A DNA stretch of 64,000 nt, taken from the NCBI RefSeq assembly GCF_037392515.1, contig NC_090285.1, positions 70,781,515 to 70,845,514 of the forward strand. Reading direction: 5' to 3'. The notes below the pieces were generated by a model that was not told where the DNA came from, did no database searches, and saw only the letters and a list, made by a program, of their open reading frames with translations. The stretch is from Haliotis asinina. Its lineage: Eukaryota. Every line of letters begins with the position of its first letter. Position 1 is the first letter of the stretch. Below are positions 18,265 through 25,098 of the stretch, piece after piece. A program made the translations under genes and the position numbers.

Positions 18265-18588
18265 TCAGCTATCAAACTCAAGACCATCCAGTTCATCCTT
18301 AAGCTCGGTATTGACCTGAGTCTCAATGCTGGACGGCACAACGTCAAGGCAGATGTCGTACTGCTGGTCAAGCCCAAGGTAGGAGTCACTCATCAGGTAG
18401 AGGGTGTAGATGACACGTCCCACTGTCTCTGGTGTGTACAGAGCAAGCTGAGCCTTGGAACGACCACGCACGTACCCCATCCGCTTGAGTGCGATCAGTT
18501 CCTTAGTCTCCACCTCACCCACCACAACAACCCAGCCTTCATCCTTTGGCTTCGGGAATCGTGGACTGTACGCCTTGCTGTCAGACTT
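18265..18588 (-). CDS. ASCC3: Brr2-family helicase terminal coding exon (stop at 18265-18267)
   Basis: [83 protein letters not shown]... vs Brr2 [27 protein letters not shown]...[23 protein letters not shown]. Acceptor ttacttcag|AAG. Confidence 0.75.
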   Translation of the reverse strand, partial: [107 protein letters not shown]

Positions 18589-19345
18589 CTGAAGTAACAA
18601 ATCACTGTCATGAATGACATATTTTATACACTGGAGCCAGGAAACCATGGCTATGCTGCTGTGACAAGCTTCAAGCACCTGGCTACTGCACCCTCGTACT
18701 TCATGTAAAACATTTGCTACTTTTATTTTGTCCACAAGCAGGCAGCAATATAACTGTGATGGTGGCTCTGTGAGTTAATATGTTCAGACAAGAGCATATA
18801 AAAAGGTGAAACTATACAAATAATGGACAATGACAACCTGACACAGACGAGTCACAGAGCCCAACTACCACATGCAGGAAACCAGTGAACATTAAATCAG
18901 ATTTGGTCTTCAGGAATACTTGTTTGATTTGGCATTTAGAAGCTGGTATGATGAACAGGAACAATTCTTTATGGATTGATCTATCCTTCGTGTATATACT
19001 CTCCTTGTCCATAATGTTGTCGATCATGTGTTTGGTAATGGCGTTAGCATCTACAACAAAACATTTTCAATAAAGAAGTTGTCTATCCATAAAAAATCAT
19101 TCCTATTCGATTGTACGAAAAGACACACCGTTTTTGTTGAAACATGTCACCAGTTGCTTAGACTGATGCTGTATAGGCTCTGGACTGCCTGGTCCTGATT
19201 ATTTACAGACCATGATGAAACAGCTAGAACATTGCTGAGTGTGACCATGAAAAGACAACTACAAACACTTGACATCTCCATCTGGCATGTAGTGTACATC
19301 AACATCATCAGTGTCCATGAGGGTCACTGAAAGTACACGACTCAC

Positions 19346-19437
19346 CCGGGTCTTGTTGACTCTTGCCAGGTCAACCTGAAGGACATATTCCTGATCAGCA
19401 TGGACCTCGATCCAGTCTGAGTCTTGACGCCGCCCAC
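19346..19437 (-). CDS. ASCC3: Brr2-family helicase exon
   Basis: GRRQDSDWIEVHADQEYVLQVDLARVNKTR (VLQVDLAR ~ Brr2 VVLVQLER). Acceptor ctacag|GT completes Gly. Donor CGG|gtgagt. Confidence 0.55.
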
Positions 19438-19449
19438 CTGTAGCAAGTA

Positions 19450-19450
<1 letters not shown>

Positions 19451-19494
<44 letters not shown>

Positions 19495-19495
19495 T
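19451..19495. repeat. (GAT/ATC)15 microsatellite abutting the exon 19346-19437 acceptor
   Basis: catcatcat... x15. On the gene strand it reads GATGAT... 14 nt upstream of the inferred AG. Confidence 0.95.
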
Positions 19496-19727
19496 CCTTG
19501 TGGTTGAAAGTTTACGATGTGCATTGCTTTACATTGTTGAGTACATGCTTGTGAATATCTGTCAAATTTTAACGGTTAGTTTACTTTATTCAAGTGTGTT
19601 ATGTTAAACAATGATTCTGAATAATCACAACTATGTCTTTTTACAATCAATTATTACTTATAATTCTTCTTTTGGTTGACTTTAGATTATTAAGATGTTA
19701 GATTTTAATGGATGAAACATGTCCTAC

Positions 19728-19842
19728 CTGTAACGGACAGATTAACTAATCTCTCCTCCTCCTTGCCCCTTGACCCTTCCCAGAATCCCTTGACTGTGAT
19801 GGAGACACTGATCTGTGGCAGACGACTCAATACCAGGTACAC
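19728..19842 (-). CDS. ASCC3: Brr2-family helicase exon
   Basis: VYLVLSRLPQISVSITVKGFWEGSRGKEEERLVNLSVT(G) vs Brr2 [20 protein letters not shown]. Acceptor ggctttag|G, donor ACAG|gtagga (phase 1). Confidence 0.6.
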
Positions 19843-19989
19843 CTAAAGCCAAATATTATAATTGTATCTTTTGATCTTTCATTTTGATTTGAAAAAGATC
19901 AGCTATTCATGTTTTACAGATTATAAGTATAGAAATCCACTATTTTTATATGTACAAAGTCTCCAAAAAAGACAAAACACCCTGTTTGT

Positions 19990-22120: not shown

Positions 22121-22518
22121 TGAGTGAGTTTTATTATCCCCTCCACACGTTTAGTGCGAAGCAGGGGATATAGTACTAGGTTCCGTAAGATTTACAGTAG
22201 TCAGCGAGATATTTCAACAACCATTCCCAGAATTTTCTTCATATTCAACACCAAGCTTATTCTTGGGAAGGTGCAACAAGAATGCTCACCTTGTCACACG
22301 ATATCTCAAGAACAGCTGACTGGGTATTCTTATTTGTTACCAGCCTTCACCTTGGAAAGGCGCATTTAACTTCATCTTGAACTACTACCTGCATTTTCGT
22401 TACTTTTTAAGTTTAATTTGACAATAATTTACGGTGTGGGACTACATCACCTTAGTGATAATGTTTTTATTTCAATTTAAACATCATGAAATTCTGGAGT
22501 CCATGCCAGCCACCTACC

Positions 22519-22574
22519 TGTTGATCTGGTCTTCATTATGGCGGACTGGGAGCTCAGCATACTCATGGGCATTC
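22519..22574 (-). CDS. ASCC3: Brr2-family helicase exon
   Basis: NAHEYAELPVRHNEDQINS vs Brr2 NAAEYENIPIRHHEDNLLR. Acceptor cacag|A, donor AACAG|gtaggt (phase 2). Confidence 0.7.
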
Positions 22575-22860
22575 TGTGAGGGGAACAAGAAAGATGTGAA
22601 ATCACTACCATCTCCATACTAACTATTCTTAAAAAAGTCCACAAAGTTAGGAGCAGATGTGTGTTTGTTCAGGTCTACTTCATCCTTCTTGTCACTAAAA
22701 CTGCAACCACAACGTCAGACAATATATGCATCACCCAAACTAAACATCATCTATTACATCTCAGTATCTGTCACATTTTATATGGTCATTTAATGTGGCT
22801 TTATCGGAAATAGGGACATGAATTACTAACAATGCCCAGATTAATGAGATCCAGACATAC

Positions 22861-22995
22861 CGACAAAATATCCAAGAGCTCTGGCAGTGTTGATTCAGCC
22901 TTGAGTTCATTACAGAACATGCGCACGGTGTTGTGGTTCAGGTAGTAGTAGGACGAGATGCGGCCCAGGGTCAGTGGTGAAACACTGCGGTTGTC
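22861..22995 (-). CDS. ASCC3: Brr2-family helicase exon (start of the second Sec63 domain)
   Basis: DNRSVSPLTLGRISSYYYLNHNTVRMFCNELKAESTLPELLDILS vs Brr2 [41 protein letters not shown]. Acceptor ctttctag|G, donor TCG|gtatgt. Confidence 0.7.
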
Positions 22996-23499
22996 CTAGA
23001 AAGATGCATTATGTTTCCATAAACACAGTATCCAGGAAGGCTGATGTTACTGACATGCAGCTGGGACATGACATAAAGAAGAGTATCTAAACGACATGAC
23101 ATAAAAAAGAGTATCTAAGGGACATGACAGAAAGAAGAGTATCAAAGGGATATGACATAAAGAAGAGTATCAAAGGGACATGACATAAAGACGAGTATCT
23201 AAGGGACATGACATAAAGAAGAGTATGTATGAGACATGACACACACAAGAGTGTATATGGGACTTACAACTGCAGACAGCAGGTACATTCCGTTCAATAT
23301 AGAACAATATGTTATGGATAACAACTTCTTTATTGTGTGAGTGTGACATTTTGATACAGACTCTTCCAACACTGTCAAGCAAAAATGCCACAATAAAGGA
23401 AGGAAATGTACATAAATACTGAATACAACAATGAGACAACATAATAAACAAAGAAAACATAATAGACGAAGAAAACAACAAAATAGCCATGACTGGTTA

Positions 23500-24620
23500 A
23501 GCATTAAGCTGGAGAAACCAGTAAGTACATAAAGGGTGGTGAATTGAAGCCAGAGAACCTGCCTGTTGTGAAGTCCATTTGGTTGTTGGCAAGAATGGTG
23601 ATGTCAGACCACTGTGTTTGATGATTGGGGTTTGCTTTGATGTGGTCAGAAATGGCTGATTTGCTGTCGGAATTGGTAACAGAGTTGTGATGTTCTTTGA
23701 CTCGGGTGTTGATGGTCACAATGTTTCACCTATGTAGCTTTATCCACAGTTCTGGGTTGTTGTTGATGGTGGGTTGTTTTCTTCTGTTGGTATGGAAGGG
23801 GTTGCTGAGGCTGGAGGATGCGGAGAATGTTGTGTCTATCCCTGCATTTTTGTTGTTTCAGGAGTCAGCTGATTTGATGCCATAGTTTATGAATGTAGGG
23901 AATGGATATCTTGATATGGGCTGATTCTGGTTTAGATCTATTGGCAGGAGGTGACAGCGTTGCACCTATGGTTCTGGGCCCTTATTCTCAAAACGTTCAA
24001 AGCCCTAAGAATTGTTCCCTTTGAAAGTAGCCAGGCTACGAACAATTCGAGAATAGAGGGTCTGGTGACTATTTCAGGCGGGTAGTGGTTACATTCTGCA
24101 TAGACTTTCCTCAGGAGTTCAATTTCTTCCTGTAGATTTGATGAACAGATGTTTTTGGCTCTTCTGGTCAGTGAAGAAATGGTGCCAGTCTTGACTTTAG
24201 GGGATGGTTGGACTTTTAGTGGAAGTATTGATTCGTATGGGTAGTTTTTCTGTACACAGAGGTCTGGAGTAGGTTGCAGGAGGTATGGCATACAAGAACG
24301 TCGAGGAAAGGTAGTTGGTTGTTCTGCTCTGTTTCAGTGTTGAATTTGATGTGGGAATGCTGTTTGTTACTATGGGTGAGGAACTGAAAACGGATCATGA
24401 TGACGCTGGAGGATGATGAATGCATCATCCACTTTACGGTACCAGCAGGCGGTTTTGCAGGGTGCAGTTTCTAGAGCCATATCTTCCAGATTTGTCATGT
24501 AATCTCTTAGAATGGGGATAGCTGATAGAAGTCTGTGGATTTGCTCATAGACAGCATCGCCCCATGTGAAATAGGTAGATTTGATGCAGATGTGGGTGGG
24601 TCTGAGTCGGTAGAGAGGCT
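23500..24620 (-). mobile_element. Penelope-like element fragment (RT with RYVDD-type motif plus C-terminal GIY-YIG-like nuclease), degenerate, intronic
   Basis: Minus-strand translations WYRKVDDAFI, VYRKTTHTNQYFH, LPFLDVLV, RVKEHHNSVTNSDSKSAISDHI...NHQTQW, in several frames. Confidence 0.45.
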
Positions 24621-24689
24621 GGTGTTAAGGGGTTGTTGAATGTTTTCTTTGACTGTTATATTCAGTATACATATACATTTCCTCCACTT

Positions 24690-24880
24690 CCTGTATCACT
24701 TCTGCTTCACAACGGTACATACATCTGTATCACTTCTGCTTCACAACGGTACATACATCTGTATCACTTCTGCTTCACAACGGTAAATACATCTGTATCA
24801 CTTCTGCTTCACAACGGTACATACATCTGTATCACTTCTGCTTCACAACGGTACATACATCTGTATCAAAATGTCGCACT
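24690..24880. repeat. ~34-bp minisatellite, 5 copies
   Basis: cacttctgcttcacaacggtacatacatctgtat repeated. Confidence 0.9.
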
Positions 24881-24986
24881 CACACAATAAAGAAGTTGTT
24901 ATCCATAAAATACTGTTCCATATAGTAGATCTCAACTTCTAAAATGCCACTCAAACAATCAGGGACTTTCTTTATTGAACACTTAC

Positions 24987-25098
24987 CTCGCCCACCTGCA
25001 GACAGTAAGAACATTCTAGTTCCATCAGGGCCTTTTCTACCAAACCAGACAGATACTTGTTGATGATGTCCTGCTCAGTATTATCCAACTTGTAGTAA
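24987..25098 (-). CDS. ASCC3: Brr2-family (Ski2-like) helicase, C-terminal cassette exon; most likely ASCC3-like, alternatively SNRNP200
   Basis: Acceptor ttgcag|T, donor GAG|gtaagt. YYKLDNTEQDIINKYLSGLVEKALMELECSYCLQVGE aligns to Brr2 [35 protein letters not shown]. Confidence 0.6.

Follow-up and report, generated by a model that had tools for sequence, protein, structure and literature searches.

Introduction

[quoted passage not shown] DNA unwinding by ASCC3 supplies single-stranded DNA for alkylation repair by ALKBH3, and which cassette is responsible for this unwinding is debated in the same work (PMC7608686). ASCC3 is also the helicase of the RQT complex and, together with partners, splits or clears collided ribosomes (PMC9938168). 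Here we analyze a 64,000-nucleotide (nt) stretch of the Haliotis asinina genome (contig NC_090285.1, forward-strand positions 70,781,515 to 70,845,514; hereafter the window, numbered from its first letter), on the minus strand of which an earlier note, made from the letters of the sequence, had proposed nine terminal exons of a Brr2-family helicase. We find that these nine exons are the already annotated 3' end of an ordinary H. asinina ASCC3 gene, with a splice model that reproduces the RefSeq model exactly. The gene end is therefore already known and carries no novelty, and its meaning beyond correct annotation is small, although a reading of the sequence by eye did recover a true nine-exon gene end.

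Nine terminal exons of an abalone ASCC3 gene

The sequence was read over positions 18000-25400 and exons were taken by their end sequences, yielding nine minus-strand exons within 25098-18265 (Table 1). Joined together, they amount to 1306 nt, comprising one leading base, 434 sense codons and a TGA, with zero internal stops, and the remaining two frames are stop-rich. All nine exons have a pyrimidine-rich tract and AG in front of them, GT(A/G/R) follows each internal one, and all phases agree, the first exon (exon a) being entered in phase 2. The internal introns measure 1991, 287, 453, 394, 393, 963, 290 and 757 nt in the 5' to 3' direction of the gene, and the 3' untranslated region runs on below 18265, with candidate poly(A) signals ATTAAA at 17481 and AATAAA at 16934.

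The spliced translation matches residues 1766-2199 of the RefSeq protein XP_067673987.1 (activating signal cointegrator 1 complex subunit 3-like, Haliotis asinina; 2199 amino acids (aa)) at 434/434 positions and free of gaps, which places the nine-exon reading far beyond chance. There is no difference in the comparable part, residues 1-1765 being encoded outside the window. Searches with 15 ASCC3 fragments and with full-length Haliotis ASCC3 (tblastn) recovered the same nine blocks in the same order. Extraction, the open frame and the tblastn blocks thus bear out the phase-consistent GT-AG exons first read on the minus strand, and the C-terminus ...EFDS* and the segment RLVNLSVTGGRRQDSDWIEVHADQE are present in the translation as quoted; the product, first counted as 401 aa, is in fact 434 aa long. 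A tblastn extension past the acceptor of exon a to 25118 (QCMLYCS against RLVMNPS) was rejected as a chance run into a minisatellite, the true ...RRLVMNPS not being encoded there.

A Pfam scan places one Sec63 domain (PF02889, E = 2.7e-66) at product residues 44-406, where it matches 1-251 of the 252 profile positions. The C-terminus carries the Sec63 homology unit in full, with helical bundle, helix-loop-helix and Ig-like parts. Human ASCC3 (PDB 8ALZ chain B, 8alz_B; 562 bits, E = 7e-168, 56% identity) is the top match across the PDB chains, in an unbroken alignment of product residues 1-430 with chain residues 1373-1803 that stops 3 residues short of the chain end. The likeness runs end to end through the Sec63 unit, including a segment around ...WIKLHADQEYVLQV that has no Brr2 counterpart, and the two proteins share a 19-residue C-terminal motif; they differ in the loop that follows the helical bundle (PRGGGARQKGFPELRG vs KKWKPIMKGPHARGRT) and before the Ig-like domain, where small indels occur, and in the tail, which has diverged beyond QVNT. 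SNRNP200/Brr2 (e.g. 6S8Q, 3JCR) is likewise a dual-cassette Ski2-like helicase with a C-terminal Sec63 unit collinear with the abalone product, but it attains under half the bit score (268 bits), in three pieces with 42% identity over 204 residues and 36% over 89, and the middle, including the central part of the Ig-like region, does not align, leaving ~117 residues unaligned; it is a paralogue rather than the orthologue. Yeast Brr2 scores ~165-171 bits. Yeast Slh1 (the RQT complex helicase, 7ZPQ), the fungal counterpart of ASCC3, is far more distant, scoring 154 bits over the helical-bundle part, with good alignment limited to product residues 5-204. The best named homologues are all called ASCC3.

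The higher score, the one-piece alignment and the fact that the segment absent from Brr2 can be aligned to ASCC3 favor ASCC3 over SNRNP200, and by sequence comparison the nine exons encode the Sec63 unit at the C-terminus of ASCC3 rather than that of Brr2. The earlier note had leaned the same way and had pointed to segments that are extra relative to SNRNP200, the flagged one of which indeed aligns to ASCC3 (...KRDDNKWIKLHADQEYVLQV). It gave ~40% identity to SNRNP200, and the collinearity it described with human Brr2 stands, over residues ~1770-2130 instead of 1700-2136.

Within the genus, the product is 93.8% identical to H. cracherodii ASCC3 and 93.3% to that of H. rufescens. A search for full-length relatives, with a threefold tandem query that combined a Patella helicase-C/winged-helix fragment with the nine-exon product, was led by H. 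cracherodii XP_071112657.1 (2198 aa). The cluster formed at 90% identity holds one full-length protein each for H. asinina and H. cracherodii, and H. rufescens is represented there by two isoforms of a single RefSeq model. H. cracherodii ASCC3 (94% identical) carries ASCC3_N, Helicase_PWI, two DEAD sets, WHD and Sec63 domains. We consider it nearly certain that the exons described here represent the last nine coding exons of a single-copy-type abalone ASCC3 orthologue, specifying the Sec63 unit (ratchet, helix-loop-helix, Ig-like) of its C-terminal cassette. By orthology, the abalone protein would act as the helicase of the ASC-1/ASCC and RQT complexes; the window codes only for the last Sec63 unit, the catalytic RecA domains lying outside it.

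Table 1. Features of the window. Exons are listed in the 5' to 3' direction of the gene; identities are to H. cracherodii ASCC3 (P0383, tblastn).
Feature	Position	Strand	Length (nt)	Description
Exon a	24987-25098	-	112	S/YYKLDNTEQD...CLQVGE; C-terminal Sec63 unit begins here; acceptor ...ttgtattgcAG, donor GTAAGT; residues 1764-1801, 95% identity
Exon b	22861-22995	-	135	Borders AG/GTATGT; residues 1802-1846, 96% identity
Exon c	22518-22573	-	56	Borders AG/GTAGGT; residues 1847-1864, 100% identity
Exon d	21896-22064	-	169	Borders AG/GTGGGT; tblastn blocks
Exon e	21350-21501	-	152	Donor CAG/GTACGT is the first unit of the 31-nt minisatellite
Exon f	20806-20956	-	151	Borders AG/GTGAGT; tblastn blocks
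Exon g	19728-19842	-	115	Borders AG/GTAGGA; tblastn blocks
Exon h	19346-19437	-	92	Borders AG/GTGAGT; codes for GGRRQDSDWIEVHADQEYVLQV, alignable to ASCC3 (8alz_B), not to Brr2
Terminal coding exon	18265-18588	-	321 + TGA	TGA at 18267-18265; ends ...LDGLEFDS*
Visible 3' part of intron before exon a	25099-64000	-	38,902	Without ASCC3 coding sequence
Minisatellite, 57-mer x16	25102-26005			Ends 3 nt before exon a acceptor AG
Minisatellite, 40-mer x43	26235-27947			Upstream of exon a
Polinton/Maverick	28357-42690		14,334	361-nt terminal inverted repeats, 98% complementary
Polinton integrase ORF (open reading frame)	28490-29458	-		Intact; rve 1.7e-10, above Pfam cut-off
Polinton polymerase B (protein-primed) ORF	29439-33172	-		Split into overlapping ORFs 29439-31154 and 31070-33172
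LINE (long interspersed nuclear element) remnant	43934-46876	+		Decayed, frameshifted; Exo_endo_phos 4.8e-10, RVT_1 4.1e-12 (Pfam)

A proposed long intron upstream of the Sec63 exons

A tblastn search of 25099-64000 with the full-length H. cracherodii ASCC3 found no upstream ASCC3 exon, in agreement with the initial reading, which had recognized none between 25098 and the window end; at 94% identity even a 20-residue exon would be detectable by this method. Residues 1-1763 of the H. cracherodii protein reached a best match of E = 0.17 in the window, produced where the paralogous Sec63 unit of the first cassette meets these same exons, and 39 ASCC3 fragments with helicase-C and winged-helix sequence gave no tblastn match outside 18-25.2 kb even at E < 10. 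From these results we infer that the preceding exon, ending in ...TWTYFFRRLVMNP plus 2 nt of a Ser codon, lies past position 64000, making the intron at least 38,902 nt long.

In the proposed gene model, transcription would proceed from right to left, and the nine terminal exons would provide residues 1766-2199 of a 2199-aa dual-cassette Ski2-like helicase. The upstream exon would join the acceptor at 25099/25098 by phase-2 splicing over an intron no shorter than 38.9 kb, exon a following ...RRLVMNP(S) of the winged-helix domain, predicted to be encoded outside the window. On the same strand, this upstream exon would encode ...DAMDYITWTYFFRRLVMNP and end at the DNA level in ...TGGACNTAYTTYTTYMGN...AAYCC plus 2 nt. 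Splicing across the long intron in H. asinina is likewise predicted from the gene model.

An intron of this size fits what is seen in related genomes, namely an H. cracherodii ASCC3 gene spanning 225,244 nt, with two opposite-strand nested genes inside, and orthologous introns of 39-143 kb. In Pinctada imbricata, a 4-exon helicase-C/winged-helix cluster and the Sec63 exons, annotated as separate proteins, share one strand of one chromosome with 38.7 kb between them, and in the annelid Lamellibrachia satsuma the corresponding parts of ASCC3 are collinear, on the same strand and 142.8 kb apart. Lingula, Elysia and Solemya showed no upstream ASCC3 exons within 11-23 kb of the Sec63 exons. The length of the intron before the Sec63 exons is thus 39 kb or more in Haliotis and 38.7 kb in Pinctada; it reaches ~143 kb in Lamellibrachia and exceeds 10 kb in Solemya, Elysia and Lingula. 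The nine-exon layout, the exon sizes and the phase-2 acceptor before [FY]Y.LD are common to the Pinctada and Lingula loci.

Full-length ASCC3 models of 2186-2219 aa are available for Haliotis, Lottia, Saccostrea, Crassostrea, Gigantopelta, Mactra and Babylonia, together with a 1959-aa low-quality model for Pomacea, and across the exon a junction the full-length mollusc RefSeq models read ...RRLVMNPSYYKLDNTEQD / ...RRLVMNPSYYKLD. Intron-free Logan contigs carry complete ASCC3 ORFs of 2125-2200 aa, one of which (7989 nt, 2200-aa ORF) spans the junction and is 71% identical to the nine-exon product. Together, these full-length models and intron-free contigs indicate that ASCC3 is one transcription unit in molluscs. 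The earlier note had left open whether the gene continues beyond the window or is a partial copy; the single 2199-aa product and the long orthologous introns speak for continuation and against a partial copy.

Alternative explanations for the isolated 3' part

Several points weigh against reading the nine exons as the end of one continuous gene. The upstream exons fall outside the window, so that physical continuity of the gene is not visible in this stretch of DNA, and XP_067673987.1 is a computed model. Several lophotrochozoan annotations start a separate 430-470-aa product exactly at exon a, and a Lingula RefSeq model has its own 14-aa first exon; such models may stem from fragmented prediction or from an internal start site.

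One alternative is a free-standing or internally promoted unit encoding a ~440-aa Sec63 module, arising through gene fission or as a short isoform that starts in the long intron, which we regard as highly improbable. In its favor, at least 13 lophotrochozoan models begin at exon a, their short N-termini being unrelated, and at least 7 others stop just before it, at ...RRLV.NP; the Lingula RefSeq product, a 439-aa 'isoform X1', starts from a first coding exon of its own, located 1.9-2.5 kb upstream; and one primate-like transcript contig (P0028) starts within the homologous intron (MFSS/YYNLGD). The MFSS of that contig, however, is a polypyrimidine tract plus AG read in frame. The excess of short models was produced by our first homologue search, which listed only targets ~0.57-1.75 times the query length (best match Pinctada imbricata, 71%), and beyond this length window full-length models and full-ORF mRNA contigs appear. 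Moreover, the 'separate' pieces follow one another collinearly on one strand, and the short models show no conservation of their N-termini.

At least 7 lophotrochozoan annotations cut ASCC3 at the same two long introns, as seen in the Pinctada and Lamellibrachia loci and in proteins P0187, P0193, P0197, P0200, P0207, P0214 and P0235, into 158-224-aa 'Helicase C-terminal domain' pieces that start MEN(I/L)I... and end ...RRLV.NP and ~440-aa 'SEC63 domain-containing protein' pieces. Given the collinear loci and the full-length models, the short and split models are best explained as fragmented predictions at the same long introns, enriched by the length window of the search. Gene fission into a stand-alone Sec63 gene had been raised from the 430-470-aa models and from five loci with no upstream exons within 10-23 kb; it was dropped in view of the length window, the collinear pieces in Pinctada and Lamellibrachia, and the existence of mRNA contigs and of full-length models from molluscs. 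Many mollusc, annelid and brachiopod annotations break ASCC3 into two or three models at these introns, and ~440-aa 'Sec63 domain-containing protein' entries from such genomes should be treated as ASCC3 fragments.

Two narrower variants were considered. An internal start site in abalone, as hinted by the 14-aa first exon of Lingula, is very unlikely, and the present data contain no positive evidence for an extra Sec63-only isoform in this animal. It is also improbable, if slightly less so, that the unusually long lophotrochozoan intron holds an internal promoter for such an isoform and/or conserved nested opposite-strand genes. Opposite-strand genes do occur within the split-model gap, including a CUB-domain gene in Pinctada, and a tblastx comparison of the window flanks with seven comparison loci identified no conserved nested gene common to them. 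In Lingula anatina (LFEI02000589.1, 20915-29342), the 14-aa alternative first exon and the first two Sec63 exons are present twice, ~5.4-6 kb apart (20915/23482/23820 and 26904/28869/29208), which reflects a tandem duplication at the locus or else an artefact of assembly.

Even less credible is a truncated partial duplicate, in which the exons would be the dead or orphaned 3' remains of an ASCC3 copy and the functional gene would be found elsewhere. The 38.9 kb without an upstream ASCC3 exon and flanks rich in transposons and minisatellites would be compatible with such a fragment, but the 434-codon frame is intact, each of the eight internal introns is bounded by canonical sites, the product shows 100% identity to the C-terminal end of the sole annotated full-length H. 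asinina protein in the 90% cluster, and long introns at the same position in Pinctada and Lamellibrachia explain the gap. Finally, we give no credence to the C-terminus of the spliceosomal helicase Brr2/SNRNP200, which belongs to the same Sec63 domain family and is collinear with the product, given its far lower and fragmentary match, the naming of the best homologues and the complete identity to a RefSeq ASCC3-like protein.

Transposable elements and repeats in the proposed long intron

Continuation of the ASCC3 gene beyond the window would make the remaining features upstream of exon a intronic. The largest of these is a Polinton/Maverick element starting 3259 nt upstream of exon a, close to the ~3.3 kb given in the earlier note, with termini AG...CT and an identical TCTCG duplicated on both flanks. 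The features that define this class (terminal inverted repeats, polymerase B, integrase and a target-site duplication) were all found, the polymerase B match being weak (DNA_pol_B_2, E = 0.0061, 15.9 bits, below the Pfam cut-off of 25.8 bits), and the split polymerase B frame suggests a frameshift or an intron. Because its terminal repeats are nearly identical and its flanking duplication is clean, the insertion looks recent, and the Polinton-free site would be expected to read ...CTGTCTCG/TAACAAG... The element most likely sits inside an ASCC3 intron, a placement that had been offered as a possibility and that follows from the gene continuing past the window, while itself depending on the gene model.

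The LINE remnant represents a non-LTR (long terminal repeat) retrotransposon with apurinic/apyrimidinic endonuclease and reverse transcriptase sequences. The intron would thus have been enlarged by a recent Polinton insertion, this LINE remnant and several minisatellites, all of which are thereby placed in an intron of a housekeeping gene, where they are apparently tolerated. The last partial unit of the 57-mer array supplies the polypyrimidine tract of the exon a acceptor.

Plus-strand ORFs in 47-62 kb yielded no match in Pfam scans. One of them, at 59916-61658 on the strand opposite to ASCC3, is Ser-rich and extends over 580 codons from ATG to stop (626 stop-to-stop); its product looks disordered and has several Y-x-N/Y-E-x motifs. 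H. cracherodii has an 869-aa opposite-strand gene, also without Pfam matches, nested 24-40 kb from the ASCC3 3' end, and the H. asinina ORF may be an exon of its orthologue.

Repeats within and around the gene end

Minisatellites occur in nearly all introns of the gene end (24691-24868, 23063-23263, 20177-20785, 19982-20123 and a (CAT)15 tract at 19450-19494). A 31-nt minisatellite at 21000-21357 (11.5 copies, 97% matches) begins exactly at the exon e donor, and each of its units carries ...CAG/GTACGT, creating about eleven consensus-like donor sites 31 nt apart and out of frame, the first of which is the one used by the annotated protein.

The intron after exon a contains, at 23297-24923, a pair of 96-nt inverted repeats (81% complementary) around ~1.4 kb. 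Translated by eye on the minus strand, this segment includes WYRKVDDAFII, HIKFNTETEQNNQLPFLDVLV, VYRKTTHTNQYFH and SYIGET / RVKEHH (GIY-YIG-type), distributed over three frames and interrupted by stops, and it reads as a putative decayed Penelope-like retroelement.

ORFs at 62.2-63.6 kb were discarded as spurious, being located within tandem repeats. The flanks also hold a weak DDE_3 transposase remnant at 4667-5224 on the minus strand and large, strand-skewed minisatellite arrays at 6258-7773, 57805-58938 and 61811-63520, which explain why GC skew is extreme in the windows at 6-8 kb and 58-60 kb.

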